Origin: a phage
Assembly (NCBI GenBank): GCA_020381345.1
Contig: GCA_020381345.1_3636.1
DNA length: 64,000 nucleotides
Direction: 5' to 3' (one strand)
A model generated the notes under the pieces. The model worked only from the letters and a program-made list of their open reading frames with translations. It did not search any database and was not told the DNA's origin. Made by a program: the position numbers and the translations under genes. How positions within the stretch are numbered: position 1 is the first letter of the stretch; each line of letters begins with the position of its first letter. Shown here piece by piece: positions 7,895 through 61,250 of the stretch.

Positions 7895-7933
7895 CCATGC
7901 TTTAGCATGAGGAACCTGTGTGGGCTCGGTGCT

Positions 7934-8244: not shown

Positions 8245-8506
8245 ATTCTCCAAATGATGTGTGGATATTATCACTGGAGCGGTAATGTGTCAACAGAAAC
8301 GCCGCGAGGGTTTGGTTAAAATCCGAGCGTATGGTGATTTGGGTCAAAACGGACGTGCGTTCTCGCTACGCTCGAAAGAGAGATTTGTTTGTAGGCCGTC
8401 CTTAAACGCTCTATAATGAGATTATCTGCCCAAGGTATGCAATCGTGCACCAGATAAAGAAAAGGACGCCACAGAGCGTCCTAGGTGTCTTAAATTTGAT
8501 ATTTTG

Positions 8507-8818
8507 CTATACCCACGAGGGCTTATCAAGATTGGAGTAGCTGAAAGGTGTCAAAAGGTGACTGTCAAAATCTCTCAAACTATCCAAATCTTTTTCCTCG
8601 TCCTGACACCATCTGTGCCTACATTTATTGTTGTAGTGCATGGAATGCATAGCGTTCTGCAACTTAACAGGTACAAGTGATTCAGGAGTAGATAGTATTG
8701 TAGGGTATGCCAGAACCACCTCAAACAGTGGAAACACATCGAAACTAAAGTCTACCTCTGCAGAGGTTGATGGCATATAGGAGTATTTAGCCGCCTTTGT
8801 AGACATAATCCACCTCAC
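8507..8818 (-). CDS. hypothetical protein (103 aa)
   Basis: ORF track. Confidence 0.5.
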   Translation of the reverse strand: MRWIMSTKAAKYSYMPSTSAEVDFSFDVFPLFEVVLAYPTILSTPESLVPVKLQNAMHSMHYNNKCRHRWCQDEEKDLDSLRDFDSHLLTPFSYSNLDKPSWV

Positions 8819-9141
8819 ACAGGTTTGATAATACCTTCACCTAATAACTCTTCATATCTAATCTTATCCGGATCCCACTCCTGGATAATTTCGAAGACAA
8901 TATCCAACCCAGGAATAATCACTTCTCCAGTGTCAAGTTTGGCAAGAACAAAACCAGAAGGCTGAATGGTTTCCCAGTTGCGACGATTGGAATAGAAGAC
9001 CTCGAAAATATCACCGACCTTGATCTGTTGATCAAGATGTTCAAGATTCTCTTTCATATAGACGCAGCGGATTTTTCGTGCAGGCCATAGACCACCTGCA
9101 TCACGTTCATTTAGCTCTTTCACAGTGATTGGCATTCTCAT
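8815..9141 (-). CDS. hypothetical protein (about 108 aa)
   Basis: Track ORF 8815..9192 would read through an intergenic hairpin; the internal ATG at 9141 has RBS AAGGA. Confidence 0.45.
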   Translation of the reverse strand: MRMPITVKELNERDAGGLWPARKIRCVYMKENLEHLDQQIKVGDIFEVFYSNRRNWETIQPSGFVLAKLDTGEVIIPGLDIVFEIIQEWDPDKIRYEELLGEGIIKPV

Positions 9142-9193
9142 AGCTGGTTCCTTTTGCAAATAGTGAAAGAGGGGCCGTAGCCCCTCTGCCATA

Positions 9194-9499
9194 TTATTCT
9201 ACAGAGCGTTTGAACAGAATGTCTGCCTCAGACATGTGCTCAACCTCTTCTTCAATCTTAGCGCGACGTTTTTCAGCTTCGTAGCGGATATCAAACTCTG
9301 TAGCCACCAAAGATTTGATGAATTTAGGAGAATACAGATGATCCTGCTTCTCAACAAGAATGATATCCTTGATGGCATCTTTCAAATCTTTAATCTGAAG
9401 CTGGAGTTCCACCAGTTCTTCAATTGTTTTGCGAAGGCGATCACGTTCTGCAGTGTCAGAAGGAAGAGAGGTGAACAGTTCAACTTTAGATTTAGCCAT
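9194..9499 (-). CDS. hypothetical coiled-coil protein (101 aa)
   Basis: ORF track; followed by hairpin GAGGGGCTACGGCCCCTC. Confidence 0.5.
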   Translation of the reverse strand: MAKSKVELFTSLPSDTAERDRLRKTIEELVELQLQIKDLKDAIKDIILVEKQDHLYSPKFIKSLVATEFDIRYEAEKRRAKIEEEVEHMSEADILFKRSVE

Positions 9500-45559: not shown

Positions 45560-46473
45560 TGCATATAGTCCTCGTTGTGGAAATAGCAGTCCAGTATCTC
45601 GCGACGCTCCTGCTCTAATAAGCAATTCCACACATCTTCTGTATAGTTGCTACGAATAAATTTTACCATACCGTAAAACTCCTCGTCAACACGTTTAAAA
45701 ATATCGTCATCCCAAATCTTCCATGCTTTACCTCTCATTACGGCCTTCCGTGCCAAATAGTATGGAGACTTGATCTTCAGCTGCAGGTCATAAGGGTAGT
45801 AAGGCTTACGGATCATATACCCTTCGCCCCTTGTTTCTGCAGCTAATTCTTTTGCATAGCTGAACGGGATTTCACGCACAGTGTGAGGACGTTTTGCACC
45901 AAGGTATTTGGCAATCCCATCTAAAGCTGCTTCTGGTAGCATTATTCCAGAATCATTATATCTGCAACCTATCAAATATGCGCCATGGTCTTCTTGAACA
46001 ATATGCGGATCTGAAGGGTGACAAATTTCAAACATGAATGTCATGTTTTCATTGCCCATAACCTTCTTGATAAGATCTAAATTACCACATTGCTCTTGGA
46101 TGGTTTCCTTTGCAAGGTTACAATATGGAGAATCAAGAGACCCGGTTGTTGAGAACAATAGTTCACCTTTATGAGATGATACCACACCGAGGAATCCGTT
46201 CTTTTTCTCTACCGCAGTAACAAGTTTACTGTCCGGTAGGTTGGTGGAGTTTTCTCCTAAGTTGAATACTTTTGTGAAAGGCCATGCCACAACATTCCCC
46301 TCATTGCCAACAACAATACCTCGGCACTCCAGTAAACGCGGAGACAAATGCCACAGATTGTTGTAGAATACTTTTCTGGCATATTTATAGATCTTTAATC
46401 CAAGATCTGGATAATACCGACTGGTTACAAGACCTTTGTCTACTAGGTCATCTGCATTAAAATACTTCATCAT
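45556..46473 (-). CDS. Rnl1-like RNA ligase
   Basis: Matches recalled T4 Rnl1 in LECRGI, KVFNLGEN and the nucleotidyl-transfer lysine region EKKNGFL; start placed at ATG with RBS GAGGA. Confidence 0.75.
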   Translation of the reverse strand: MMKYFNADDLVDKGLVTSRYYPDLGLKIYKYARKVFYNNLWHLSPRLLECRGIVVGNEGNVVAWPFTKVFNLGENSTNLPDSKLVTAVEKKNGFLGVVSSHKGELLFSTTGSLDSPYCNLAKETIQEQCGNLDLIKKVMGNENMTFMFEICHPSDPHIVQEDHGAYLIGCRYNDSGIMLPEAALDGIAKYLGAKRPHTVREIPFSYAKELAAETRGEGYMIRKPYYPYDLQLKIKSPYYLARKAVMRGKAWKIWDDDIFKRVDEEFYGMVKFIRSNYTEDVWNCLLEQERREILDCYFHNEDYMQ

Positions 46474-46534
46474 ACGTTCCTCATTTGTCATTTTGTCAGT
46501 CTATCCTGCCACACAAATAACCTAGTGTCAACAC

Positions 46535-46563
46535 TTGAAATTAACAAAACAGTTAGGTATACT
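46535..46563 (+). promoter_or_regulatory. sigma70-like promoter
   Basis: TTGAAA, 17-nt spacer, TATACT in the divergent region between RNA ligase and kinase. Confidence 0.5.
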
Positions 46564-46591
46564 ATCATTAAAATTAAAACGGAGGATTGCT

Positions 46592-47002
46592 ATGTCTAAA
46601 ATGCTATATATCGTGCGTGGTCTGCCAGGGTCTGGCAAATCAACACTGGCAAATGCGCTATCTTTAGAAGGTCTGTATCCACATTTTGAGAACGACATGT
46701 TCTGGTATGACGATGACGGCAATTACAACTGGGATGCAAGTAAAGTAACACTCGCAGCAAAATGGTGCAAAGATAACGTAGAAGATATGATGCGTATGGG
46801 ATACGACCGTATCGTGGTAAGTAATACGTTTACAAAAGAAAAACATGTGCAGGAATATGTTGACATGGCAATCAGTCATGGGTATAGTTATACCGTGATC
46901 GTGGTTGAAAACCGCCACGGTAATAAAAGCATTCATGATGTTCCAGACAAGGTTGTGGATCGTATGGAACGCCAGCTTAAAAACTGCATTAAACTTAAAT
47001 GA
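46592..47002 (+). CDS. P-loop kinase, polynucleotide 5'-kinase-like (136 aa)
   Basis: Walker A GLPGSGKST; RBS GGAGG 6 nt before ATG 46592. Confidence 0.6.
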   Translation: MSKMLYIVRGLPGSGKSTLANALSLEGLYPHFENDMFWYDDDGNYNWDASKVTLAAKWCKDNVEDMMRMGYDRIVVSNTFTKEKHVQEYVDMAISHGYSYTVIVVENRHGNKSIHDVPDKVVDRMERQLKNCIKLK

Positions 47003-47009
47003 GGAATGT

Positions 47010-47564
47010 ATGAAATACTTTGTAACAAGCGACACACACTTTCTCCACCAGCGGGTCATGGAGTTTGATTCATGTCAAAAACACAGATCTCAGTATGATC
47101 ACAATCTTGACAGTATGAATGCGGGAATCATCGCCGAGTGGAACTCTGTTGTGTCACCTGCAGACACTGTGTTCCACTTGGGAGATATTGCGTGCACTAA
47201 TGATAAGAATATCAACAAATTACTTCCAGATATTCTAAATATGTTGAACGGACATATTATTCTTGTTCGTGGCAACCATGACACAAGGACGACTGTCAGA
47301 ATTATGAAAGAGTTCGGTCATGAGGTTGTAGATTATTACGAGCTTCGCCACAACAAGAATTTGATCTGTATGAGCCATTACCAGTTTGCAAAGTGGAACA
47401 GAAAGCCTCACGGATCAGTCCAACTGTTCGGTCATGCTCACGGAACCACACAACAGTTGTTTGGCAGGCAGCTTGATGTCGGTTGGGATGTGTGGGGGAG
47501 ACTCTTACCATTAGAAGAGGCATACCGTACTGCAATGAGTTTTGATATTGACAGCAGGGAGTAA
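47010..47564 (+). CDS. calcineurin-like metallophosphoesterase (184 aa)
   Basis: Motifs SDTHF, GDIA and GNHD; track ORF 46905..47564 is an upstream-extended version of the same frame. Confidence 0.6.
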   Translation: MKYFVTSDTHFLHQRVMEFDSCQKHRSQYDHNLDSMNAGIIAEWNSVVSPADTVFHLGDIACTNDKNINKLLPDILNMLNGHIILVRGNHDTRTTVRIMKEFGHEVVDYYELRHNKNLICMSHYQFAKWNRKPHGSVQLFGHAHGTTQQLFGRQLDVGWDVWGRLLPLEEAYRTAMSFDIDSRE

Positions 47565-47611
47565 TCCCTGCTATTTTAAAGAAAATTGCCACACAAGGAG
47601 AATCAGGAGAT

Positions 47612-47962
47612 ATGAAAGATGGGGATAAGCTGCTATATCTTAAAGTCCCCCTTGAAATACTATCTATGTCAAAAGTTTTGAATGACACAACTGGGGAGGT
47701 TGTTGTTCTTGACTTGTATGACAAGATCGTATACTGCTACCTGCACAACTGGTATAAGCTTGGAGGAAATTCACGCTTCACACCAAGCACAAGGAAAATT
47801 GCAGCAGATGTTGGGATAAAGAAAACAAAAGCAGCAGCGTGCGTTAAAACTTTAGAATGTGCAGGAGTGGTTGAAACATCCACACAAGGGAGAGGTAAAA
47901 GATGCACATTTTCCAAAGTTTTGCCACCAGAAAAAGTTATTCGAATGTCAACAACTGGTTAG
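47612..47962 (+). CDS. putative DNA-binding protein (116 aa)
   Basis: HTH-like segment TRKIAADVGIKKTKAAACVKTLECAGVV; sits just upstream of the iteron array. Confidence 0.5.
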   Translation: MKDGDKLLYLKVPLEILSMSKVLNDTTGEVVVLDLYDKIVYCYLHNWYKLGGNSRFTPSTRKIAADVGIKKTKAAACVKTLECAGVVETSTQGRGKRCTFSKVLPPEKVIRMSTTG

Positions 47963-48035
47963 ACCAGTAAAAACTTAAATATCTGTACTATAAGGATTCG
48001 TATGTTTTATGTTCGCTCTGGAACAGAGGTTAGTA

Positions 48036-48121
48036 ACTGTCCGTGATACGGACACTACTGTCCGTCACGCGGACACATCTGCCCGTAATACGGACACTAA
48101 CTGTCCGTGATACGGACACAT
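48036..48121. repeat. four tandem ~21-22-bp iterons, each a GTCCGT-N4-ACGGAC palindrome
   Basis: Units start at 48036, 48057, 48079 and 48101; the third is degenerate (GCCCGT). Confidence 0.75.
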
Positions 48122-48250
48122 AAAGAATATAACTAAAATAACTAAATAATAAAAAATAAAAGATCTAGTACTTATGGTACTAAAGTACATATACTTAACT
48201 TATGTAGAATATACTAGATCCTAAGTACCATGTTTTAAATTTATTACTTA
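48122..48250. other. AT-rich tract with GTAC-containing palindromes (possible DNA unwinding element)
   Basis: About 130 bp of strongly AT-rich sequence right after the iterons, including AGTACTTATGGTACT. Confidence 0.4.
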
Positions 48251-48623
48251 CTATAGGTAGTGTCGGCCCTTCATTGGCACTCGCCTACGAGGGGCGAGAT
48301 GCCGGGCCTCCGTAGTGCACACAATAACAGAAGTGCATACATGCAGGTATGTTAACATGTGTGGTAGCGAAGCGATAGCGCAGGCCAAAGGCCGAGCACT
48401 AATGTGGGCCACCGACGAAAGCTTGCCAGCGCCGTAAGGAGTCGGTTAAGAGTCTCCCGCGCGAGTTTGGATAAAGTTTATGTGTGGAAACGGACAAGGA
48501 GGCCCCTAAATAGCCCCACAGCTATATAAACTATACCAGGTAAGGCAATCGCACCAGTTTGATAGAAAAGCTCGTTACAAAGCGATACAGTGAGTTTTTC
48601 TATAACTTGAAGAGGAGGCAGCT

Positions 48624-49202
48624 ATGAGTCAACGCAAAGATGACCGTGAAAAGATTGCAAAACGTTATCAGAATGAAGAACAGATGGAGAAAACTTTCAA
48701 GTGGAAGCCAGGTTTCCAGCGTAATCATTCTAACGCTCGTGATCGTAAGCATCCGGATAAGTGGTTAACACCGCCAAATGATGGCATTCAGGTTGGTGAT
48801 GAGAAGGAGCTGTCACCTGGAAAAGATGGCAACTACATTCGCACTAAGGAAGCAGGTCCAAAGGATGACAGCTATCTTGTAGATAAGGTTCTTGACGGTG
48901 TTGAGGTAGGTGTTGACACTGCACGAAACCTTTTTCTTGGTTGGTATCGCACAGGGTTTTTCGACATCAAGGCTATTCGTCGTGTTTGTGATATTAAAAA
49001 GTCTGCCTATGATGATGACTCCCTACATCGCACTCTGAGACAATACTCAGAGAGATACGGTCATCCAGTTATCACTCTTGACGATATTAACGAAGTGATG
49101 TATCATGCAGAGGTTGTTGCAGGTAGGTTCGGTGATGCATATCTCGGTATCCTTTCTGCAAAGGATGAGGTAATGTTAAATAAGATTTACTATGAACGCT
49201 GA
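48624..49202 (+). CDS. hypothetical protein (192 aa)
   Basis: ORF with RBS GAAGAGGAGG upstream. Confidence 0.55.
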   Translation: MSQRKDDREKIAKRYQNEEQMEKTFKWKPGFQRNHSNARDRKHPDKWLTPPNDGIQVGDEKELSPGKDGNYIRTKEAGPKDDSYLVDKVLDGVEVGVDTARNLFLGWYRTGFFDIKAIRRVCDIKKSAYDDDSLHRTLRQYSERYGHPVITLDDINEVMYHAEVVAGRFGDAYLGILSAKDEVMLNKIYYER

Positions 49203-49212
49203 GGGGCGATTA

Positions 49213-49401
49213 ATGAACAATCCGGTAGCAAAGAACTGTAATAAGTTCAACAAGTCTGCGATTCACACTGACAGGAAAAAGGGTTGGTTTCCTGACATTG
49301 ACGAGGAGCTTGAGAGTTACTTTGAAGATTTAGTCACCAATGCAGATGAGGTTGCGATTAAAGAATATGCAGACAGGAGGGATAAGGCCGGAATCTGTTG
49401 A
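49213..49401 (+). CDS. hypothetical protein (about 62 aa)
   Basis: Internal ATG at 49213 with RBS GAGGGG. Confidence 0.45.
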   Translation: MNNPVAKNCNKFNKSAIHTDRKKGWFPDIDEELESYFEDLVTNADEVAIKEYADRRDKAGIC

Positions 49402-49426
49402 CAAAAATAATGTTACCTGATAAGAT
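49398..49426 (+). promoter_or_regulatory. sigma70-like promoter
   Basis: TTGACA, 17-nt spacer, TAAGAT. Confidence 0.45.
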
Positions 49427-49477
49427 CTGCAATATGATGTGATACAATTTTAACTTACGAGGTCTACAGGTAATGCT

Positions 49478-49720
49478 ATGTTTAAGGTTAAGCTCGTTTT
49501 TCGTTCCATGAATGAGGATTATTTAGAAGATGAAGGTGAATTTCGTGCACTGGATGATGCAATAGATTTTGCCAACGACTTAGCTTGTATGAATACGGGT
49601 TATGGGTTATGTTGTTGGGATGGTGGTGTTCAGATCGGTGATAGCAAGATCTTCTACTTCTACCCTGAGCCCGATAACAAACAAATTAAGTATGTTTTAT
49701 TTATTTGTGCTTTACAATGA
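49478..49720 (+). CDS. hypothetical protein (80 aa)
   Basis: ORF track. Confidence 0.5.
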   Translation: MFKVKLVFRSMNEDYLEDEGEFRALDDAIDFANDLACMNTGYGLCCWDGGVQIGDSKIFYFYPEPDNKQIKYVLFICALQ

Positions 49721-50007
49721 GGTTGTTTTCGTGTATCATGATGAATATCCAATTTAAAGATGAATTTGATGGCTTTATCTCCGGATGCTTTGAAACAGGG
49801 TTCGGAGAAGACTGAGTTCCCCTTAGAGGGCTTGATAGTGCACCACACTTAAAATGGTAGGGGCAGCCAGCACATGACGATGTGACCCCAGCCAACCTGT
49901 AATAAGGTCGAGCCAAAGCGCGGTAATAGGCTCTGGTAACCCACTTGTTGGGTCTTGTTGGTCCAGGACGCTGGACAAGTCGCAGGGAATACCACCCTGC
50001 GGCGAGC

Positions 50008-50499: not shown

Positions 50500-50574
50500 G
50501 CCCTGTTAGCTTAGTGGATAAAGCAGCGGCCTTCTAAGCCGTTGACACTGGTTCGAGTCCAGTACGGGGTGCCA
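50500..50574 (+). tRNA. tRNA-Arg (anticodon TCT)
   Basis: Hand-folded cloverleaf: acceptor GCCCTGT/ACGGGGT, anticodon loop CTTCTAA, T-loop TTCGAGT, encoded CCA. Confidence 0.7.
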
Positions 50575-50704
50575 AGTTCTTTTTAATGTAGCTTACTTTA
50601 GCAGAGTAAATCTTCGGCAAGTGGCGGTAACCACTTTACCGATACCTCATAGTTAGTGGTGAGAACACTAGCTATTTTAAAAAGAATTTAAATATTAGTA
50701 TTTA

Positions 50705-50792
50705 GGTGAGTTAATTCCGTAGGGGTAGCGGGGCAGACTGTAAATCTGTTATCATTGCGATTCGGGTGGTTCGACTCCATCACTCACCACCA
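50705..50792 (+). tRNA. tRNA-Tyr (anticodon GTA), long variable arm
   Basis: Acceptor GGTGAGT/ACTCACC, anticodon loop CTGTAAA, T-loop TTCGACT, CCA; 88 nt. Confidence 0.6.
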
Positions 50793-50906
50793 AATTTATA
50801 TTTTTAAATGCATAAATCATACAGATAATGGCATTGATATTTATCGTCGTTTATACTAGTCACTAACTGCTCGAAAATCAGTGTCATTATCAGTATTGTT
50901 TATAAA

Positions 50907-50997
50907 AGAGGGTAGGGAGCAATGGTGCTCAAGCGGTCTTGAAAACCGTCCCGTTGAGGATTACTCGATGATGGTTCGATTCCATTATCCTCTGCCA
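50907..50997 (+). tRNA. tRNA-Ser (anticodon TGA), type II
   Basis: Acceptor AGAGGGT/ATCCTCT, anticodon loop CTTGAAA, T-loop TTCGATT, CCA; 91 nt. Confidence 0.6.
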
Positions 50998-51095
50998 TAT
51001 TGTTGACCTTGTAATTAAGCGAAAGCCGGAAGCAGAACCGGATTATCAAATGTTACAGTCGTCATCGCCGACTAGCAACATGGTCAACATACTGA

Positions 51096-51192
51096 GCTAG
51101 GTAAGCCCTTTGGCAAGGGCGAGGATTTTTAATCCTGAAAATAGACGAGGTAGTCGTTGAATACATAGGTGGTTCGATTCCATCACCTAGCA
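51096..51192 (+). tRNA. atypical tRNA-like element (97 nt), anticodon uncertain
   Basis: Acceptor GCTAGGT/ACCTAGC, D-arm GCCC/GGGC, T-arm GGTGG-TTCGATT-CCATC, but non-canonical anticodon arm, 29-nt extra arm, A at position 8, no CCA. Confidence 0.35.
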
Positions 51193-51199
51193 CCTTTTT

Positions 51200-51275
51200 G
51201 CTGATGTAGCACAATTGGTAGTGCAATTGATTTGTAATCAATAGGTTGCAGGTTCAAGTCCTGCCATCAGCACCA
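51200..51275 (+). tRNA. tRNA-Thr (anticodon TGT)
   Basis: Acceptor GCTGATG/CATCAGC, anticodon loop TTTGTAA, T-loop TTCAAGT, CCA. Confidence 0.7.
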
Positions 51276-51276
51276 T

Positions 51277-51351
51277 GGCCCTGTAGCTGGAAGGTTCAAG
51301 CAAGCGACTCATAATCGCCAGACGGTGGTTCAATTCCACCCAGGGCCACCA
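51277..51351 (+). tRNA. tRNA-Met or Ile2 (anticodon CAT)
   Basis: Acceptor GGCCCTG/CAGGGCC, anticodon loop CTCATAA, T-arm GGTGG-TTCAATT-CCACC, CCA; D-stem weak. Confidence 0.55.
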
Positions 51352-51362
51352 AATAATGAATA

Positions 51363-51439
51363 CTCCGCGTAGCTCAGCTTGGTAGAGCGCCTGATTTGGG
51401 ATCAGGAGGTCGAGTGTTCGAATCACTCCGTGGAGACCA
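51363..51439 (+). tRNA. tRNA-Pro (anticodon TGG)
   Basis: Acceptor CTCCGCG/CGTGGAG, D-arm GCTC-AGCTTGGTA-GAGC, anticodon loop TTTGGGA, T-loop TTCGAAT, CCA. Confidence 0.7.
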
Positions 51440-51485
51440 CTTTCAGTTATACTTTAAACATATACAAACAAAAGGAACCTTTAAA

Positions 51486-52259: not shown

Positions 52260-52543
52260 GAGTTGCTACACTGTTTATTGTGTGCTTGTTATTATGTGGG
52301 TGTGCAACCAGCGTTGAGAGAGAATACAAGATTGACCCTCCGGATGTAGGAAGGTTGATTGTTAAACCCCCAGAAGGTGCCATGAAACCACCTGCTAAAG
52401 CTATGCCTTTGAAGAAAGGTGCGCCAGATGCAGTGAATTCTGGCATTATGAGGGATAATAATCTGTCTTGTAGCAATGATAGAGCTAAATTGATCATTTT
52501 GCAAGACTATATTAGAACACTGTTTCCAAAGGAGAGAGGTTAA
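52256..52543 (+). CDS. o-spanin (Rz1-like outer-membrane lipoprotein, 95 aa)
   Basis: Signal peptide with lipobox LLLCGC and proline-rich mature region. Confidence 0.6.
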   Translation: MRVATLFIVCLLLCGCATSVEREYKIDPPDVGRLIVKPPEGAMKPPAKAMPLKKGAPDAVNSGIMRDNNLSCSNDRAKLIILQDYIRTLFPKERG

Positions 52544-53285
52544 TGTCTAAGATTTACGGACCGTGTTCTGAAAAGCAGAAGATGATCCTAGAAAACGATG
52601 CAGATATTTTGGTAATCGGCGGTGCCGCAGGGTCTGGCAAGTCGTTCCTCTTGCAGTTGATGCCACTTAAAATTATTGATGACCCCCACAGCTCTGTGGT
52701 TATGTTCCGAAGAACAACCCCGCAGTTGGAAGGTGAGGGTGGACTATGGCCTAAAGCAGTAGCTATTTATAGTGATCTGCCTGAAAACATTAAGCCAAAG
52801 TTCAGAGAGAAGGATCATAAGTTCATTTTTCCACGGTTTGATCCGAACACTGGTAAGTGGGATAGAAGCAAAAAGGGAGCTGTTGTAAAATACTGCCACA
52901 TGGAGTATGTACAAGATAAGCTTAACCATCAGGGGCTTGAGTACACCATGGTTTGCTTCGATGAGGGCACGCAGTTCGAATGGGAGCAGATAGACTATCT
53001 GATGTCTCGTCTGCGATCTCAGTCAAAGTATCCATCAAGAATGGTTATCAGCTGTAACCCCGATTCAGAACACATGCTTGCCAAACTGGTTAGATGGTGG
53101 TTGGACGATGAAGGGTATCCAGATCCGGAGAAATGCGGTAAGAAAAGATATTTTATCCGACGCGACGGTGAATTTATATGGGGAGACTCTAAAGAAGAGT
53201 TGATAGAGAAATACACCACGGTTAACGGACTGGGTGTGGAGATCAAGCCAAGACCGTTGTCATTCTCGTTTATAGGCGCAACCAT
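52543..53285 (+). CDS. terL: terminase large subunit, exon 1 (ATPase domain); 3' boundary approximate
   Basis: Walker A ILVIGGAAGSGKSF and Walker-B-like MVCFDEGTQ; apparent stop at 53290 lies inside the intron. Confidence 0.7.
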
Positions 53286-54264
53286 TAAATGATAGTGGCT
53301 TCGTGCAGAAATGCACGTCGAATAACTTCGTTAATTGCTGGAAAATCCGATTGCTAAACGGACAATCAGCAGCTATAATTACCCTTCCGAACCTGTAGTA
53401 GGGAGATGTTTGAAATGAAAAATTTAGGCTTTTTAGGCTACAATCATTATTGTGCTACATACGATGGCAGAATTTACAGTCTGTATTCTAATAAATTCCT
53501 CCATCCTAATGTGCAGAAAAAGACTGGCTATGCTATGGTAACTTTGTGCGAGGACGGTAAAAAGTTCCAAGTGCTCGTTCACAGAGTGATTGCTATGACT
53601 TTTGTTGATAATGATAATCCCAGCGTGAAAACTCAAGTAAATCACCTTGATGGCAATAAGTTGAATAACGCCGCATGGAACCTTGAGTGGACAACACCTG
53701 AGGAAAACACACATCATGCTCATGAAATGGGACTTAAAAAGGACTATGTCAATAAATACAGGTCCCTAGATGATGCCACTGCTCTTGAAATATGTAGACT
53801 GTTAGAGCAAGGTGCAAGGGTAAAAGACATTTGTGAAATGTTTGGTGTCAATCAACCACTTGTAAGTGGTATAAAGAATGGCTCAGTATACCCAGATATT
53901 TCTAAAGAGTTTAACTTTAGAAAAGTGCCAACCTCTAATAGGATAAGTGAGCACAAGATAATAGGTATCTGCGAGGATCTTAGTGATAGGGTTTTGTGTG
54001 TAAATAAAATAGCTAAGAAGTGGGGCGTAAGTTTTAGTGTTGTTAAAGGAATAAAAGACCGTAAGACTTACACCTATATTTCAAACAATTACGATTGGTA
54101 ATGTAGTTCAACGACTATCCCGAGAGGGAGTAGGGCGCAAGCTTATGGCGCTCGAAAAGCGAAGCACCCTGAGATGGGTGGTGATATAGTCTACTCTGCA
54201 TGGTAACATGCAGCGGCACGTAATGGTGCGGAGGGTGGTGTTGCGACCACCTTTGAATATAAGG
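53286..54264 (+). mobile_element. group I intron in terL carrying an HNH homing endonuclease ORF; boundaries approximate
   Basis: About 980 bp between the ATPase and nuclease halves; contains CTAAACGGACAATC and a 3' block nearly identical to nrdD intron 2. Confidence 0.65.
53406..54101 (+). CDS. HNH homing endonuclease (intron-encoded, 231 aa)
   Basis: HNH motif VLVHRVIAMTF..VNHLDGNKLNNAAWNLEW; own RBS GGGAG. Confidence 0.7.
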   Translation: MFEMKNLGFLGYNHYCATYDGRIYSLYSNKFLHPNVQKKTGYAMVTLCEDGKKFQVLVHRVIAMTFVDNDNPSVKTQVNHLDGNKLNNAAWNLEWTTPEENTHHAHEMGLKKDYVNKYRSLDDATALEICRLLEQGARVKDICEMFGVNQPLVSGIKNGSVYPDISKEFNFRKVPTSNRISEHKIIGICEDLSDRVLCVNKIAKKWGVSFSVVKGIKDRKTYTYISNNYDW

Positions 54265-55069
54265 ATTCGATAATCCTGTCTGCTTGAGAGACAACCCAGA
54301 ATACCTTGCTTTTCTTGAAGGTCTGCCCGAGCTTGAAAAAGCCCAGCTTCTTCATGGCAACTGGTTTGCAAAGCCTGAGGGTGCAAACTATTTTCAAAGA
54401 TCTTTCCTTCGTGATGCCGATAGAGTACCCCTTGGATCAGTATCTTGCAGGGCATGGGATAAGGCAGGAACCGAGAGAACTTCCGGTAATAAATTTCCTG
54501 ACTTTACCGCCAGTGTTAAGGTAAGTAAAGATAGCGACGGCTTTTATTACCTGTCCGGTGATTATTGTCCTGAGAACGTGGATGACGGGAGGTATTCCAC
54601 AGGTCTGGAAGGCAAGTTCTGTAAAAAGGCTGGTGAACGAGATGTGATCATCAGGAAACAGGCGCAGTTTGATGGTGATGATTGTATAATCGTATTCTCT
54701 GTGGACCCCGGTCAGGCAGGTAAGAGTGAGTTCTTAACATCCTCCAGATCCTTGCTCGCCGAAGGGTTTAGGGTTGAAGAAGACCCAATGCCTTCCAACA
54801 AATCTAAACTGACAAGGTTCTCACCTTTTGCCAATCTTGCCCAACAAGGAATGGTTAGGATTGTAAAATCCAGTTTCCATCCTGATACTCTGGAAGCATT
54901 TCTGACTGAACTTGAAAAATTCAACGGGGAAAGATCAACATTTAACAGGAAAGACGACTGGGCCGACTGTGTAGCTTCTGCGATTAATTTCCTGGAGAAA
55001 GAGGAGGTAGCACTTCCTTGTGTGATTCCATCAATCTCATCACCTTCTATGTTCAAGCGTTTTATCTAA
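54265..55069 (+). CDS. terL: terminase large subunit, exon 2 (nuclease domain); 5' boundary approximate
   Basis: Open frame continuous from 54263 with no ATG; acidic residues consistent with a terminase nuclease domain (IIVFSVDPGQAG, DDWADC); track start is TTG. Confidence 0.65.
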
Positions 55070-55118
55070 GTGTTGCCAATCTTAATTAGATGTGGTAGAA
55101 TAGAGTAATCGGAGATAC

Positions 55119-55148
55119 TAGCCCTCTAACACGAGGGCTATTTTGTTA
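55119..55148 (+). terminator. rho-independent terminator
   Basis: TAGCCCTC-TAACAC-GAGGGCTA followed by TTTTGTT. Confidence 0.6.
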
Positions 55149-55171
55149 TACTGTTTTGAGGGGTAAAGCTT

Positions 55172-56728
55172 GTGTCCAAAAAGAACCGCAGGAAACACAA
55201 CGCCACAGCCAAAACTGTGAATAAATCTGGGAACGCAGGCGCACCAACTCATAATGTTCGTATGAGTGAGATCGGTTCTGGCGCACTTTCCCAAATTATG
55301 GCAGAGTCGCAATCTATGATGGTTGAGGAATTGCGTTGGCCTCAGCTGATTGCTACAGTGGAGACTATGAAATGTGATTCCACAGTTGCTACTGCCTTAG
55401 ATACAAAATATGTTTTCATCACGAAAGCATTTAATGATTTTAAGATCCTTTATAATGTTAAAAGTGAAGACTCTAAGAAAGCTGCCGAGCTTATAGAGTA
55501 TTCTTTGCGTAATTTGGCAAACCAACAAACTCTTCGAGATATTGCAAGAAGCGCAGCTACCTTTAACGAGTATGGTTTTTCACTGTTTGAGAAAGTATAC
55601 CGCAGAGAGAGAGAAGGTAAATATGCCGGGATGCTTCTTATTGATAAAATTGCATTCCGACCTCAGGCCAGCCTGTCCAGATCAGAGCCGTTTGTTTTTG
55701 ATAAGAATAGCAGAACACTGACAGGTATTTATCAGTCACCTAATGCATTTCTAAACACTCAGAATGCACGCTGGGCTGGACCTCTTGCTGCAATGCCTTC
55801 AAAAGGCTTTAATGAGCCTGAAATTTTCATCCCTGCTAAAAAGCTTATGCTCATGACCCTGTCAGGAACAGAATCTAACCCTGCAGGTGTGTCACCTATG
55901 ATAGGTTGCTACAGATCTTTCCGTGAGAAAGTTCTGATTGAAAACCTTGAGGTTGTTGGCTGTTCCAAAGACCTTGGTGGCGTGCTTGAGCTGAAAATTC
56001 CTTCCAATATTTTGAACAAGGCCAGCATTGACCCGAATTCAATGGAAGGGAGAATGGTTGCAGACCTTATGCTTGACGCAGCAAACGCCCATAGTGGTGA
56101 GCAAAGTTTCTTTATACTTCCGTCTGATAGAGATAAGTCTGGTAAAGAGCTTTACTCCATGACCCTGAAGGGGGTTGACGGTATGGGTAAGCAGTATTCC
56201 ACTAAAGATTTGATTGATGCCCGTAAGAAGGCGATTCTTGACCGTTTCGGTGCTGGCTTTATTAACCTCGGTAACGATAACGTTGGATCCTTCTCTCTGT
56301 CTGAGTCAAAACAGTCTATCCATGGTCATTTTGTTCAGCGTGATATAGATATTATCACTGAGGCCTTCAATAAAGATCTTATTCCACAGCTTCTGGCATT
56401 GAATGGTATCATCCTTGAAGATGATGATATGCCTAAACTGAAACCTGGTCTGATTGAAGAAGTGGACATGGAGAGCTTCTCCAAGTTTGTCCAGAGGATC
56501 GGTGCTGTAGGTTACTTGCCAAAAACTCCTGCAGTAATTAATAAGATTCTTGAAGTAGGCGGGTTTGATGAAAGATTTGACGAGGACATGGATCAGGAAG
56601 AGCTGATGAAGCTCTTGGGCCAGGACATCAGTAGAGCTGGTGATGGAATGGCTGCAGGATCCACTGGTAACGGCACTTCTAAGATGTCATCAACCAGAGA
56701 TAATTCCATATCCAACATGGAAAATTAA
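55172..56728 (+). CDS. putative portal protein (518 aa)
   Basis: Large ORF directly after terL, GTG start with RBS GAGGGG; call by position and size only. Confidence 0.55.
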   Translation: MSKKNRRKHNATAKTVNKSGNAGAPTHNVRMSEIGSGALSQIMAESQSMMVEELRWPQLIATVETMKCDSTVATALDTKYVFITKAFNDFKILYNVKSEDSKKAAELIEYSLRNLANQQTLRDIARSAATFNEYGFSLFEKVYRREREGKYAGMLLIDKIAFRPQASLSRSEPFVFDKNSRTLTGIYQSPNAFLNTQNARWAGPLAAMPSKGFNEPEIFIPAKKLMLMTLSGTESNPAGVSPMIGCYRSFREKVLIENLEVVGCSKDLGGVLELKIPSNILNKASIDPNSMEGRMVADLMLDAANAHSGEQSFFILPSDRDKSGKELYSMTLKGVDGMGKQYSTKDLIDARKKAILDRFGAGFINLGNDNVGSFSLSESKQSIHGHFVQRDIDIITEAFNKDLIPQLLALNGIILEDDDMPKLKPGLIEEVDMESFSKFVQRIGAVGYLPKTPAVINKILEVGGFDERFDEDMDQEELMKLLGQDISRAGDGMAAGSTGNGTSKMSSTRDNSISNMEN

Positions 56729-57215: not shown

Positions 57216-58192
57216 TGTCTGAAAAAACGATTACTATTAAAGAGAAGGGGATTGCCCTGTGCCATAAGGCGCAAGGCTATAGCGCTAACAACAGACCTGT
57301 ATCTCTTTTGATGAAGAGTGATCTTAAGCCTGAGCAGTTAACAGACGATATTGTTAAGGCACTTCGCCAAGTTACTGTGGAGCTTAGTTTTGAAGAATAC
57401 CTGCGTCGTTTCTTCGATATGTGGTATGATGATGCTAAAGCACTTGCACACATGCTTGGTTTTGAGATTGAAGAAGAGGCTTGGGCTAAAGAGCACCCCG
57501 ATTGGGAATGGGCGCAAGCTGACGCAGAGTCTTGTATTGCATGGCTGGAAGAGCGTTGTGATAACGTGACCATTCATAAGGCTGCAAAAGAAGGCAAGCA
57601 GCTTAGTGTGGTAGATCAGTACAGCCTGTTAAAAACACAACAGATTTTTGAACAAGTAACCGCTGATCTCTTCGATAAAGAAGGGAACCTGATCAAGGCG
57701 GTACAGGAACCTGCTGAGGTGGATAAAACTACCGAGGTGGATGATGTTGCAAAATCCGCAAATACCGAGGAGAATCCGGTGGACGTAACCAAAACTAAAG
57801 AGTATCTGGATCTGCTGAAGCAAGTAGAAGAGCTGAAAGCAACCCAGAGTAAAGCTGAAGAAATCATCAAGGCCCAGGTTGAAGTTGAAAAAGCTAAAAT
57901 GCTGACTAAGGCTCAAGCTTTAAGCTTTGTTGGTGAAGAAGATCACGCAACCCTGGTTGACTTCATGCTGGAAAAAGCTAACGAACCTATCGTAGCTATG
58001 CTGGAGAAAGCTCAAGCAAAAATTGAAGAGCTGGAAGCAGAGGTGCATAAAACTAAAGAAGAGTTTGCCACCACTGAACATGGTAATGATGGCGAACCTG
58101 TTGTGGATGATATTGCAAAATCCGCAGAAGAAATTCTTGCTGAAAACGTTGCAAAAGCACTTGCTCGTGCACGTGCAGAATCTAACAAATAA
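57215..58192 (+). CDS. putative scaffolding protein (325 aa)
   Basis: Acidic, coiled-coil-rich C-terminal half; sits before decoration and capsid genes. Confidence 0.5.
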   Translation: MSEKTITIKEKGIALCHKAQGYSANNRPVSLLMKSDLKPEQLTDDIVKALRQVTVELSFEEYLRRFFDMWYDDAKALAHMLGFEIEEEAWAKEHPDWEWAQADAESCIAWLEERCDNVTIHKAAKEGKQLSVVDQYSLLKTQQIFEQVTADLFDKEGNLIKAVQEPAEVDKTTEVDDVAKSANTEENPVDVTKTKEYLDLLKQVEELKATQSKAEEIIKAQVEVEKAKMLTKAQALSFVGEEDHATLVDFMLEKANEPIVAMLEKAQAKIEELEAEVHKTKEEFATTEHGNDGEPVVDDIAKSAEEILAENVAKALARARAESNK

Positions 58193-58212
58193 TACATTAA
58201 CGGGGGAAATAA

Positions 58213-58602
58213 ATGATTACCGCTCAATATTCTGATATCGTGCTCGGCAAAGTTGATTCTAGCGATGCTGGCTACAATTTTAAAGAGATGGAAATTACAC
58301 TGACAGAGCACCACCATGCTGGTACTGTTGTAACAAAAACTGGCACTATCGCTAACGATGATGGCTCAGACGTTTATGGTGTTCTTGTAGACCGAGCTTT
58401 GGTAAAAGATGCAGGAAAAGTTCATCTTGCTGAGCCTCTGCAAACAGGTCAGAAATATAAACTGGTTGTTGCAGTTCACGGTGTTACCTTTGCAAAAGAT
58501 AAGCTGCTGGGGTCTAACGGTGAAGCAGCTAAGCAGGCTGTTCTTGAAAAGCTGGAAGCTCTGGGTAACAAAGTTCACGTCCAGACTCTTGGTGAAGAGT
58601 AA
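58213..58602 (+). CDS. putative head decoration protein (129 aa)
   Basis: Small ORF directly before the capsid gene; call by position. Confidence 0.45.
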   Translation: MITAQYSDIVLGKVDSSDAGYNFKEMEITLTEHHHAGTVVTKTGTIANDDGSDVYGVLVDRALVKDAGKVHLAEPLQTGQKYKLVVAVHGVTFAKDKLLGSNGEAAKQAVLEKLEALGNKVHVQTLGEE

Positions 58603-58650
58603 GTCCTAAATTGTTCGGGAAAATATTTAAGTTTTACTTTGGAGAAATAA

Positions 58651-59661
58651 ATGATTACTCGTAAAGATGAATTTGGCATTGTTGATTTAGGTGCTACTCT
58701 GGACCTTGTTCCACGTCAATTCCGCCTGATTACTGGTATGGATCTGTTCGAAACCCGTCTCGGCACCTCAACAATTGCTCAGATTGAGCGTGTTGATGAA
58801 GTTGTAACCGACATTCCGGCACGCCGTCGTGGTGGTGAGCGTAACTACGTTGGTAGTGAACGTGCTCAGGTTAAAAACCTGAACATCCCGTTCTTCCCTC
58901 TGGACAAAGGCATCACCGCAGCAGATGTTCAGAACTTCCGTCGTTACTTCACCCCTGATGCTCCGAAAACTGTTCAGGACGTAGTAACCCGCGTTGTTCG
59001 CCGTATCCGTGTTTCTCATGAAGCACTGCGTGAGAAAGCGCTGTTCCAGGCTATTCTGGGCAAATCCTATGCACCTGGTGACACCACCTGTCAGTATGAC
59101 TACTACACTCTGTGGGGTGTGTCTCAGAAATCTGTTGAAATTGACCCTGCAAAAGCAGATCAGGATCCTATGGAGGTTCTGGAAGAAGCTCGTCTGCACA
59201 TCGCGCTGCAAGCTGGCGATAACGCAGCTGGCTACCGTATCGTGGCTCTGTGCTCTCCTGAGTTCTTCAGTGCAATCACTCACCACCCGCTGGTAGAACT
59301 GGCATACACCTACTACGGCTCTGCTCAGGAACCTCTGCGTCGCCGTCTGGGTGCTGGCGGTCAAGACAGCGTATACCGTGTGTTTGAGCATAAAGGTATC
59401 ACCTTTATCGAAGATATCTCTGGCAATATTCCTAAGAAAGAAGCTCGCATTCTGCCGATGGGTATTGATCAGATGTTCCAGCTGCACTTTGCTCCGGCAG
59501 ACGATGTTAACGAAGCAAACACTCCAGCACAGGAACTGTATATGTGGTATAAACACTCTGCATACCTGCGTGAAGAGAAGATTGAATCTGAAACTTCCAT
59601 GCTGGCAGTTAACACCCGTCCAGAGCTGGTTGTTAAAGCAACTCTGAAAGGTGGTGAATAA
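58651..59661 (+). CDS. putative major capsid protein (336 aa)
   Basis: Position in head module, RBS GGAG, and a very strong terminator immediately downstream. Confidence 0.6.
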   Translation: MITRKDEFGIVDLGATLDLVPRQFRLITGMDLFETRLGTSTIAQIERVDEVVTDIPARRRGGERNYVGSERAQVKNLNIPFFPLDKGITAADVQNFRRYFTPDAPKTVQDVVTRVVRRIRVSHEALREKALFQAILGKSYAPGDTTCQYDYYTLWGVSQKSVEIDPAKADQDPMEVLEEARLHIALQAGDNAAGYRIVALCSPEFFSAITHHPLVELAYTYYGSAQEPLRRRLGAGGQDSVYRVFEHKGITFIEDISGNIPKKEARILPMGIDQMFQLHFAPADDVNEANTPAQELYMWYKHSAYLREEKIESETSMLAVNTRPELVVKATLKGGE

Positions 59662-59685
59662 TCACTGAGGTGATTCATCCCATAT

Positions 59686-59720
59686 GGGGAGGGGGTTCTC
59701 CCCCTCCCCTTTTTATTTAT
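59686..59720 (+). terminator. strong rho-independent terminator
   Basis: GGGGAGGGGG-TTCT-CCCCCTCCCC followed by TTTTTATTTAT. Confidence 0.8.
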
Positions 59721-59742
59721 TAGGGTTTAACAGGAGTGTCCC

Positions 59743-60570
59743 GTGAAGCGAACCGTCTACCCAGTCGAGTATGATCCTCTATTAAGAGTTTTCAACAATC
59801 AGTTAAGTTTTTATCAATTTTTAGCACAATATAACCCAGAAATCAATGTTGGTTTATCAGCCCTGCTGCCACCAACAGAATTCGTTATTGGCAGTGTTCA
59901 CTATCCGTGCAGAACGATTGTAGACTTCTTCGAGAAGATTGCAAAACATACAGGCCTGCCAATTGATACTGGTATTTCAACTATCCGTATGGGTGTTATT
60001 CTTCTGTTCTTCACAGAGAACCTTGATGAAAGTACTTTAACACTGCAAAGCGGGGATGTCAATATCACACTCACTCCGTCAGTGTTTAAAGAGGTAGATG
60101 CTGCTTTCCAAGTTTCCGTGGCAGAGGGCCATTTATGGGACCCTGTAGGGATGCCTAAAAAAGTGACCATAAACGATGAGCAATGCAACATTGTTTATGA
60201 AGAAGATACCCAAACTTTCACCATTGAGTGGCCTAAGAAACGTTCTCAGGTTGTAAATCTTGGACTGGTCTCTACGATAGCTCCACCGCCTGAACCAGAG
60301 CCGGAGCCGCCTGTAGGTCCTACTGAACCTGGTGGTGACGGTGAAGTTACTGTAGCAGATCCGCAAGATGTGACTGTATCCTCTTCCTCATTTGTAGCCA
60401 TTGAGAATAAGGATGAAATCCTTAAACAGGCCGCAGCTCTTAACAACGAAGATGACAAAAGTGGTTCAAAAGATGCACTCCAAACCTTCGCTAAAGAGTA
60501 CGGTGTTACCTTAAGTAAGGCAAAAACTTTCCAAAATATGATGAAAGATTTTGAGGCTGCACTGGCATAA
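59743..60570 (+). CDS. hypothetical structural protein with Pro/Glu-rich linker (275 aa)
   Basis: GTG start with RBS AGGAG; internal PPPEPEPEPP linker. Confidence 0.5.
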   Translation: MKRTVYPVEYDPLLRVFNNQLSFYQFLAQYNPEINVGLSALLPPTEFVIGSVHYPCRTIVDFFEKIAKHTGLPIDTGISTIRMGVILLFFTENLDESTLTLQSGDVNITLTPSVFKEVDAAFQVSVAEGHLWDPVGMPKKVTINDEQCNIVYEEDTQTFTIEWPKKRSQVVNLGLVSTIAPPPEPEPEPPVGPTEPGGDGEVTVADPQDVTVSSSSFVAIENKDEILKQAAALNNEDDKSGSKDALQTFAKEYGVTLSKAKTFQNMMKDFEAALA

Positions 60571-60580
60571 TTTTGTTAAG

Positions 60581-60616
60581 GCCCCTTCCAAATCAGGAAT
60601 GGGGCTTTATTTTTAC
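60581..60616 (+). terminator. rho-independent terminator
   Basis: GCCCCTTCC..GGAATGGGGC stem followed by TTTATTTTT. Confidence 0.55.
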
Positions 60617-60629
60617 GAGGTATTTTCAA

Positions 60630-61250
60630 ATGGCATGGTATGAAGATGAAGAGATTATCCCGTCACCACCTAACCATGATGGTGTAGTCGATACCCCAGA
60701 AGAACCACCAAAAGAAGATCCTGTTCCTCCGGAACCTGATCCAGACCAACCTCTTATTGATATTATGAGGTTATTGCTTGGCAATGTTGATGAGGAAACA
60801 CTCCCTGATGAGGTAATTAAAACATTCCTTGACATGGAGAAGCTGAAACTAAATTATCCGGCAGATCCTGATAAGCTGCCCCTGCTTAAGTACAATGTGC
60901 TTGTGCAGCTTGTGCGGTGGCTGATGATGCAGGAAGTGTCCAGTGGTAATGCAAGTATAACTTCCCGTCTGGAAAAAATAGGTGATGAGACCATAGAGAT
61001 TCGTGGTGGATCTGCCTACGCCCAATGGAAGGATTTCCTTGATTGGCTGCTGGCACACCCAGACTATGTAGATTCTGAGCTAGATGCTTACAGCAGAATG
61101 ATTATCATTGGTGGTGTTCGTGTAGACGAAGGAATTCGGGTTAAATTTAATGAAAACAGCAACGGACCGTTCGATGTCCAGGGGATTACACCTATCAGTG
61201 GTCTAAATAACCAACCTCCTCGACACCCAAGACGCAAACGCAGTTTTTAA
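60630..61250 (+). CDS. hypothetical structural protein (206 aa)
   Basis: ATG 60630 chosen over the upstream alternative start, which overlaps the terminator. Confidence 0.45.
   Translation: MAWYEDEEIIPSPPNHDGVVDTPEEPPKEDPVPPEPDPDQPLIDIMRLLLGNVDEETLPDEVIKTFLDMEKLKLNYPADPDKLPLLKYNVLVQLVRWLMMQEVSSGNASITSRLEKIGDETIEIRGGSAYAQWKDFLDWLLAHPDYVDSELDAYSRMIIIGGVRVDEGIRVKFNENSNGPFDVQGITPISGLNNQPPRHPRRKRSF

Follow-up and report, generated by a model that had tools for sequence, protein, structure and literature searches.

The replication initiator RepA of PLE, a phage satellite of Vibrio cholerae, is placed in the RepA_N group by its structural similarity to staphylococcal plasmid initiators, and the structure of its amino-terminal domain (NTD) is entry 4RO3 (PMC7145576). 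RepA binds semi-palindromic iterons, and replication from the PLE origin needs both (PMC7145576). This replication depends on the replisome of a virulent phage and not on the initiator acting as a helicase or primase (PMC7145576, PMC8263062). The carboxy-terminal domains (CTDs) of RepA_N proteins are thought to recruit the replisome, and in the staphylococcal plasmids RepA dimers bind iterons with inverted sub-repeats (PMC7145576). In PLEs, RepA NTDs and origins change together (PMC8263062). A locus that appears to contain a related DNA-binding domain was analyzed in 64,000 nucleotides of phage DNA (assembly GCA_020381345.1, contig GCA_020381345.1_3636.1), which is called the window and from the start of which all positions are counted. 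At this locus (47612-48250) the gene for a small winged-helix protein, ORF79, is followed by four tandem dyad-symmetric repeats and an AT-rich tract, and the locus is considered here as a candidate replication origin of the rV5-like coliphages.

Parts of this layout are known from other systems. The lambda origin, inside the O gene, has four dyad-symmetric iterons bound by dimers of the O NTD, a one-sided AT-rich region that is opened, and activation by nearby transcription, while the O CTD recruits P-DnaB. Iteron plasmids such as RK2 (oriV), pSC101, P1 and F reportedly follow a common scheme (Rajewska et al. 2012), in which iterons are followed by an AT-rich region with a 13-mer of the GATCT type and are adjacent to the gene of the iteron-binding protein; in RK2 a GC-rich segment comes after the AT-rich region. 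The origins of pSK41 and pTZ2162 are said, from the work of Schumacher et al. in PNAS in 2014, to lie inside the rep gene, and the RepA CTD to bind host primase; neither applies here. The lambda operators OR and OL, bound by Cro and CI, are three to four pseudo-palindromes of 17 bp, spaced by about two turns, that overlap promoters and lie beside the gene of a small dimeric DNA-binding protein.

The locus is proposed to be a replication origin of the iteron and unwinding-element type, with ORF79, a RepA_N-like protein consisting of the NTD only, as the origin-binding factor. Judged from sequence alone, this proposal has about an even chance of being correct. An earlier note on this DNA had offered two readings, an iteron origin and an operator bank for the adjacent protein. 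Both remain the leading readings, and the evidence favours the origin, the function that we infer here, because the closest relative of ORF79 is an initiator NTD, because the adjoining AT maximum is nearly invariant and contains a 13-mer of the type found in oriC, and because no sigma-70-like promoter was predicted at the array. The main features are as follows.

47612-47962, plus strand: homologue of rV5 ORF79, 116 amino acids, proposed iteron-binding protein; predicted stand-alone winged helix of the DUF6945 / PLE-RepA-NTD (RepA_N-like) type
47963-48033, no strand: spacer, with variability like that of third codon positions and no predicted terminator
48034-48119, no strand: iteron array of four units, found by Tandem Repeats Finder (TRF) and a second repeat search, unique in the rV5 genome
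48120-48250, no strand: AT-rich tract, candidate DNA-unwinding element; AT maximum of low variability
48153-48165, minus strand: oriC-type 13-mer GATCTTTTATTTT, a perfect match to the E. coli oriC consensus GATCTnTTnTTTT

By its sequence the window is DNA of an rV5-like coliphage (genus Vequintavirus, subfamily Vequintavirinae): positions 46500-49500 are 97-98% identical to more than 100 such phages. Tests of genome-wide uniqueness were run on the complete rV5 genome (DQ832317, 137,947 bp). In that record the gene at 47612-47962 is ORF79, a "putative transcriptional regulator", and in RefSeq copies it is a "replication initiation protein"; the array is marked in a few GenBank records, and only as "repeat_region". 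When the rV5 genome was published in 2013, an origin was sought by AT/GC skew and none could be defined, since the turns coincided with changes in the direction of transcription (PMC3606486). A literature search found no report of an origin or of iterons for rV5-like phages.

Both repeat searches agreed with the earlier note that four tandem units of 21-22 bp lie about two helical turns apart. They occupy 48034-48119, with start-to-start and centre-to-centre spacings of 21, 21 and 22 bp, and the array therefore has the composition expected of iteron origins, in which at least three helically phased direct repeats of about 17-22 bp are present. It is the strongest tandem repeat of the window (TRF score 110-126); only two other repeats were reported, both of two copies (scores 56 and 64). 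Every unit is built on a 17-bp dyad, TGTCCGT-N3-ACGGACA.

48038-48054: dyad 1, TGTCCGTGATACGGACA, perfect
48059-48075: dyad 2, TGTCCGTCACGCGGACA, one mismatch
48080-48096: dyad 3, TGCCCGTAATACGGACA, one mismatch
48102-48118: dyad 4, TGTCCGTGATACGGACA, perfect

Two details of the earlier description have to be corrected. It had placed four nucleotides between GTCCGT and ACGGAC, a pattern with no matches, while a spacer of three finds all four sites; and it had given the two half-sites for each unit, of which only units 1 and 4 have them exactly, units 2 and 3 having one mismatch each. With up to three mismatches the dyad pattern was matched 7 times in the window, compared with 1.65 expected, and none of 100 shuffled sequences reached 7. 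Matches with no more than one mismatch were limited to the four array sites, in the window and in the whole rV5 genome. No copies of the array were found in E. coli chromosomes, where a satellite or prophage was sought, and a scan of IMG/VR for the dyad pattern yielded about 100 single chance matches and no rV5-like array. One unrelated viral contig (IMGVR_UViG_3300042691_021677, loci L075/L076) has TGTCCGTG(C/T)CACGGACA at five dispersed positions, in each case shortly before an apparent gene start. This contig encodes no ORF79 homologue, and the motif is probably the operator of another regulator.

The array could also be a bank of operators. ORF79 would then be a transcription factor with no role in replication, and by binding the four dyads it would block read-through from its own promoter into ORF77, ORF74 and the transfer RNA (tRNA) cluster, or would control a phage-specific promoter in the AT tract. 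This explanation is considered possible but doubtful. As in classical phage operators, 17-bp dyads are spaced by about two turns, and as at lambda OR/OL the gene of a small protein adjoins them; in addition, ORF79 is a small DNA-binding domain with no further domain, and annotators in GenBank have labeled it a transcriptional regulator. The transcriptional context fits less well. The promoter of ORF79 is upstream of its gene.

47548-47577, plus strand: sigma-70-type promoter of the winged helix-turn-helix (wHTH) gene, P76 in the rV5 record; TTGACA-18-TATTTT with a TG motif

From this promoter ORF79 is presumably transcribed early, with read-through across the array, which is located downstream of the ORF79 stop codon, about 460 bp from the promoter. 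Lambda operators overlap promoters, whereas none of the sigma-70 type was predicted between 48000 and 48700 on either strand (phage-specific promoter types lay outside the scan), and thus none overlaps or adjoins the array. Nor does an operator bank explain why the neighbouring 130 bp are both the AT maximum of the genome and nearly invariant in sequence; this AT maximum has no counterpart at OR/OL.

Variability was counted on an alignment of seven Vequintavirus genomes, which included the most divergent one available, that of phage Aya (89% protein identity). The proportions of variable columns were as follows.

Third codon positions of the three flanking genes: 25-32%
47963-48033, spacer from the ORF79 stop to the array: 22 of 71, 31%
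48034-48119, array: 7%
Core half-sites TGTCCG/CGGACA: 1 of 48
Array outside the core half-sites: 5 of 38
48120-48250, AT tract: 8 of 131, 6%

The low values for the array and the AT tract, compared with 25-32% at third codon positions, indicate that both are under purifying selection as non-coding DNA, and this selection acts on the sequence and not only on its composition. The spacer is probably outside the functional element. Within the units, variation was found at the innermost arm position and in the central triplet.

Because no terminator was predicted between ORF79 and the array, the array is probably transcribed, and its palindromes might act as RNA. In this case four short hairpins in the 3' untranslated part of ORF79, similar to repetitive extragenic palindromic elements, would stabilize the messenger RNA or weaken read-through, with no relation to the protein encoded beside them. 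Each dyad could form a stem of 7 bp with a loop of 3 nucleotides, and a change in phage Aya turns G-U into G-C at the innermost pair of unit 2. Yet other variants produce C-A mismatches at this innermost position in units 3 and 4, which indicates that there is no consistent constraint on pairing, and the invariance of the six outer positions of each arm fits base-specific recognition better than mere pairing. A function at the RNA level is therefore regarded as very unlikely, and this is also suggested by the comparison with other genera below.

The AT-rich tract adjoins the array, and the earlier note's estimate of about 130 bp proved accurate. The GC content of 48120-48250 is 15-33% in 60-bp windows, and 48121-48250, with 80.8% AT, is the most AT-rich 130-bp window of the rV5 genome (the runner-up has 74.6%). 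Iteron origins have an adjacent AT-rich region, often with oriC-like 13-mers, and the tract contains a single perfect one. It is located 34 bp from the last iteron, with its T-rich strand reading toward the iterons, and it is the only perfect match to GATCTnTTnTTTT in both the window and the 138-kb rV5 genome, for which 0.23 matches are expected. The 13-mer is invariant in the seven Vequintavirus genomes, and it is present with one or two mismatches at the equivalent position in Mydovirus, Seunavirus, Henunavirus and metagenomic relatives. The GTAC palindromes that had been noticed earlier in the tract were also confirmed (48168, 48177, 48185 and 48225), four within 60 bp compared with a window average of 1.5 per kb, and two of these four are not invariant among the relatives.

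This arrangement is like that of the lambda origin, in which four dyad iterons are followed by a one-sided AT-rich region, although no homology between ORF79 and the O protein is claimed. It is also like RK2 oriV, pSC101, P1 and F in having iterons, then an AT-rich region with a GATCT-type 13-mer, beside the gene of the putative iteron-binding protein, and like RK2 in having a GC-rich segment next (here from 48251). It differs from the iteron plasmids in that no DnaA boxes were found, that the putative initiator belongs to another family and has no second domain, and that there is one good 13-mer only.

An imperfect inverted repeat was also identified within the tract.

48161-48221, no strand: imperfect inverted repeat AGATCTAGTA / TACTAGATC with 10-bp arms

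This repeat includes both of the GATC sites of the tract (48162 and 48217), and three of the four GTAC palindromes are between its arms. A hairpin or cruciform in the AT tract was not indicated, as single-stranded DNA folding was no better than that of shuffled sequences (z about -1). A sequence resembling a T7 promoter (TTACTTACTATAGGTAG, 48243-48259) was attributed to chance, because it lies at the junction that is most variable among the relatives and because no phage RNA polymerase is annotated.

The small gene beside the array, which the earlier note had described as resembling a helix-turn-helix gene, is a conserved 116-codon open reading frame with winged-helix matches and coding-type substitutions (8.5, 8.5 and 31.6% variable at codon positions 1, 2 and 3). 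ORF79 falls in PHROG 12838 and touched further PHROGs, and the label of all of them, 12838 included, is "replication initiation protein". Its best sequence match in the PDB was 4RO3, the RepA NTD of PLE (E 3.1e-6, phmmer with a single sequence). The profile of the 23-sequence family matched 4RO3 with an E value of 5.2e-12, and the next match was nine orders of magnitude weaker. All 23 family members matched DUF6945 at E <= 0.01, and three Mydovirus-type homologues passed the cut-off of that family. The RepA proteins of pSK41 and pTZ2162 had no significant sequence match to ORF79 (E about 0.8).

A model of ORF79 was made with AlphaFold2 from the 23-sequence alignment, at moderate confidence (predicted local distance difference test, pLDDT, 72.5); a single-sequence run (pLDDT 37) was not used. 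The model consists of a beta-hairpin and a winged helix, and is consistent with the winged-helix fold of RepA_N and DnaD NTDs. In a Foldseek search of the PDB, the first five ranks were taken by both chains of 4RO3, both chains of 4PQL, and 4PT7. An E value of 0.001 was passed by the 4RO3 chains alone (E 6.5e-5, template modelling score 0.63), and 4RO3 was thus the best match in both sequence and structure. The staphylococcal RepA proteins, with ranks 3-5, appear to share the same NTD fold, and 5KBJ, a complex of RepA with iteron DNA, followed at ranks 8, 11 and 25, after the ArsR-type repressor 6J05, with 4PTA at rank 36. Generic MarR and ArsR regulators followed the 5KBJ entry of rank 8. That the closest relatives in sequence and predicted structure are initiator NTDs and not repressors is a further argument against a bank of operators.

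By sequence and model, then, ORF79 is a relative of the RepA_N-type initiator NTD, that is, the DNA-binding module only and not a complete initiator. Unlike PLE RepA, which has a CTD, it stops after the NTD, at residue 116 and about 16 residues past the wing. The PLE origin also differs in having three iterons, each of about 30 bp and with an A-tract at its centre, where here there are four 17-bp dyads with a 3-nucleotide centre, and in belonging to a satellite of a Vibrio phage, while the present element is within a 138-kb virulent coliphage genome and is known from sequence alone. The adjacency of ORF79 to the array, the symmetry of the dyads, the invariance of the half-sites and the joint change of repeat and protein subtype are indirect evidence that, taken together, make it quite probable that ORF79 binds the four dyads.

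ORF79 is almost an orphan: seven proteins were all that phmmer found when 1.8 billion representatives were searched exhaustively, by tblastn both ORF79 and the downstream ORF77 are confined to Vequintavirus, and a peptide-pattern scan of IMG/VR found no relative. ORF77 was considered as the missing C-terminal half of an initiator and was rejected, since it resembles nothing informative. The homologues of a third clade are longer (182-217 amino acids). Four metagenomic relatives of 194-217 amino acids (P0011, P0013, P0017 and P0019) end in acidic tails, ...DAPF or ...EEPF, which we take to resemble the C-terminal tip with which SSB and T7 gp2.5 contact replication proteins. By this analogy, the tails hint that the longer relatives may recruit parts of the replisome.

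A weak tblastn match (E 0.02-0.04) led to proteins of 105-114 amino acids in Mydovirus, Seunavirus, Henunavirus and two metagenomic relatives. They matched DUF6945 at or near threshold, the same domain family as ORF79, and PHROG 8102, "replication initiation protein", with an E value of 1e-35 and covering only positions 9-113 of 337. PHROG families described as "O-like" were matched by the Mydovirus and Seunavirus homologues only (E 5e-6 to 3e-4). On the strand of the gene, the order of elements was alike in all five examples that were read.

First: sigma-70 promoter
Second: (A)GATCT, or GGTCT in locus L119
Third: T-rich tract of 55-85 bp
Fourth: two 20-bp repeats at 23-bp spacing, with a palindromic core (GCTCAAWTTGAGCATAGGCT; GCTCAAWTTGAGC)
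Fifth: ribosome-binding site and ATG of the wHTH gene

In Mydovirus, Seunavirus and Henunavirus the repeats are 6-13 bp upstream of the ribosome-binding site and about 150 nucleotides downstream of the promoter, and the element sits exactly within a divergent intergenic region. Their T-rich tract can be aligned with part of the rV5-type AT tract, on its minus strand (TTTAKTTATTTTA...). Read on that strand, the rV5-type element consists of GATCTTTTATTTT, T-rich DNA and the four dyads, which is the order and polarity of the other genera, with the gene on the opposite strand. Compared with rV5, the other genera therefore have different repeats, a different protein subtype and a gene that is inverted relative to the element. 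Sequence comparison indicates that the module is ancestral in the subfamily.

Whichever direction its transcription takes, the element has been kept, and this speaks for a role at the level of DNA: a function of the RNA, or one that depends on promoter polarity, would be inverted together with the gene, while a DNA-level element would be indifferent. A single polarity of promoter and operator cannot fit both lineages, and the repeats, which are in the 5' leader in the other genera, have there the opposite transcript sense relative to the T-rich tract, contrary to what a conserved RNA element would require. In addition, the repeat sequence and the protein subtype have changed together, as NTD subtype and repeats do as a module in PLEs (PMC8263062), which points to binding by the protein and away from RNA hairpins.

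The other genera also provide support for regulation. At four loci (L007 1-2420, L008 1-2353, L118 2501-5324 and L119 2353-5197) the wHTH gene heads an operon with genes similar to ribose-phosphate pyrophosphokinase (Prs-like) and to nicotinamide/nicotinate phosphoribosyltransferase (NAMPT-like); the Henunavirus locus (L121 701-1703) has the Prs-like gene only before the locus ends. We assume that this operon resembles NARP1, a phage pathway for reconstitution of nicotinamide adenine dinucleotide (NAD). Repeats that follow a sigma-70 promoter and precede the ribosome-binding site of the first gene of such an operon, as in Mydovirus, Seunavirus and Henunavirus, are what would be expected of operators. 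In contrast, neither the Prs-like nor the NAMPT-like gene was found in rV5, which nevertheless keeps the module, indicating that it persists independently of the NAD-related operon.

Several other results weigh against an origin. An arrangement of four 17-bp dyads spaced by about 21 bp is just as typical of operator banks in phages, for example lambda OR/OL. The Pfam scores of ORF79 itself were below threshold (DUF6945 27.2 bits with a cut-off of 28, HTH_36 24.5 bits with a cut-off of 25), and Pfam RepA_N (PF06970) gave no match at E <= 1. In the alignment ORF79 corresponds to the NTD only and has no C-terminal recruitment domain, and no array was found adjacent to the genes of the third clade. 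The other genera have only two repeats, in a position between sigma-70 promoter and ribosome-binding site that resembles autoregulation, and their proteins have weak, sub-threshold matches to the Pfam family "wHTH-PRTase associated". In phi92-like phages (Stephanstirmvirinae) the syntenic site is an AT-rich divergent region in which no homologue or repeats could be detected. The 13-mer was given moderate weight, because it was a post hoc find and because a T-rich tract favours T-rich patterns. No DnaA box (TTWTNCACA) was found in 46000-50000, the nearest with one mismatch being at 48466 and at background density, and no IHF consensus was found in 47500-48700; such host-factor sites are common but not universal at origins, and are less expected for a phage with its own replisome. 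Finally, the main divergent strand switch of the window, together with the minimum of its cumulative GC skew (about 46.5 kb), is 1.5 kb away from the locus, but this turn is not independent evidence, since it coincides with the switch in transcription strand. The turn given in the rV5 paper is at 66675-66725 (PMC3606486); window position 48.1 kb corresponds to about 65.1 kb in rV5.

A further explanation is that the locus is a site for packaging or other handling of DNA, such as a pac-type site for a wHTH protein of the small terminase kind, or a site for another process such as recombination or a defence decoy. Small helix-turn-helix proteins and repeated sites are present at the pac sites of SPP1 and P1, where methylation of GATC is relevant; the AT tract has two GATC sites, and the large terminase gene is about 4.4 kb downstream. 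However, tRNA genes and several open reading frames intervene between the locus and that gene, the module of the other genera lies beside genes of NAD metabolism and not beside terminase, and the model of ORF79 matches the fold of initiator NTDs and lacks the oligomerization helices typical of small terminases. Hardly any probability is attached to this explanation.

The AT tract is directly followed by a GC-rich hairpin.

48262-48311, no strand: GC-rich hairpin, 50-60% GC

Its layout is GGCCC...GGCACTCGCC-TACGA-GGGGCGAG...GGGCC, and it is invariant in the seven genomes except for one loop position. A U-tract is absent from both strands, and it is therefore no intrinsic terminator; it may bound the element. 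The hairpin is at the start of a GC-rich non-coding stretch of 290 bp (48251-48540), in which, beyond the hairpin, 24% of columns are variable, about the neutral rate, with no 3-nucleotide periodicity of the coding type; rV5 itself has an 18-nucleotide deletion in this stretch. As a structured RNA the stretch was considered (fold z -3.0) and rejected, since it had no Rfam match and compensatory change was seen at none of 90 predicted pairs. Rfam 15 gave nothing at the gathering score in 47900-48700 (the best was rli43, with 26 bits compared with 100), and only tRNAs in the rest of the window.

Several observations were made elsewhere in the window and in related records. The leader of ORF77 (48541-48623) has the motif AGGTAAGG...CTCGTTACAAAGCGATACAG, unique in the window, which recurs ahead of the first rightward gene in a Justusliebigvirus, of a different subfamily (L010 1890-1957), with three differences, two of which fall on wildcards of the search pattern; it may be a conserved leader or a regulatory motif. 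The large terminase gene (about 52400-55240, rV5 58027-60872) is annotated as a join of three pieces with an HNH homing endonuclease open reading frame inside, which suggests introns or inteins. In the tRNA cluster (50500-51440), calls were inconsistent between ARAGORN, Rfam and the rV5 record: ARAGORN reported a 99-nucleotide "tRNA-???" with a 4-nucleotide anticodon at 51096-51194 and missed an Rfam tRNA at 50705-50789, and the rV5 record has a tRNA-Arg of 175 nucleotides. A stretch of 2.6 kb at about 6650-9260 (rV5 104013-106618) has no annotated gene in the rV5 record and short overlapping open reading frames only. It lies at a convergent strand switch and GC-skew turn; the second and third most AT-rich 130-bp windows (5652 and 7043) are near it, and an 18-bp tandem repeat of 1.9 copies was found at 6480-6514.

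Eighteen records named "Campylobacter phage", with C. jejuni as the stated host, are about 98% identical to rV5-like coliphages, and are likely cases of host mis-assignment or contamination. A complete circular Vequintavirus genome of 137,565 bp (CP057073.1, locus L122), which carries a homologue of window 47612-47962, was deposited as "plasmid pRHB39-C03_2" from a cultured E. coli isolate from cattle faeces, without replicon typing. This could represent a carrier state, pseudolysogeny or contamination.

If the locus is an origin, host RNA polymerase would transcribe ORF79 early from the promoter at 47548-47577. Dimers of ORF79 would then bind the four dyad-symmetric 17-bp sites, which at two-turn spacing would be on one face of the helix, and the resulting nucleoprotein complex would destabilize the adjoining AT tract (48120-48250) with its oriC-type 13-mer. 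In this mechanism, binding by ORF79 would melt the tract, and replication would start there. The replisome genes of rV5 include a T7-gp4-like primase-helicase (ORF230) and a T7-like DNA polymerase (ORF228). Because ORF79 has no C-terminal recruitment domain, the replisome would need to load without an adaptor; ORF230 and ORF228 would enter the opened DNA in this manner, possibly helped by read-through transcription. Within an otherwise known class, the locus would stand out for an initiator of which no more than the DNA-binding domain is present. A more specific form of the proposal is that this RepA_N-type domain alone marks and opens the origin, and that a self-loading primase-helicase of the T7 gp4 type enters without an adaptor. 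This minimal-initiator form is put forward tentatively, and is thought rather unlikely to hold in full.

Phages of the rV5 type are widely isolated and have been used in E. coli typing, biocontrol and therapy. If the operators are the correct explanation, the array would be an ordinary regulatory site. The candidate origin is compact, about 220 bp with a protein of 116 amino acids, and for this reason the question can be tested directly; an origin would be of use in phage engineering, for helper-dependent replicons and copy-number reporters. The locus also ties a large virulent coliphage to the RepA_N/PLE-RepA lineage of initiators; apart from this, the lineage is known mainly in plasmids of Firmicutes and a Vibrio satellite (PMC7145576). 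If the minimal-initiator form is true, this would be the first defined origin of the Vequintavirinae, the recruitment domain would be dispensable where the replisome loads itself, and the module of the sister genera would serve at the same time to control an operon for NAD reconstitution.

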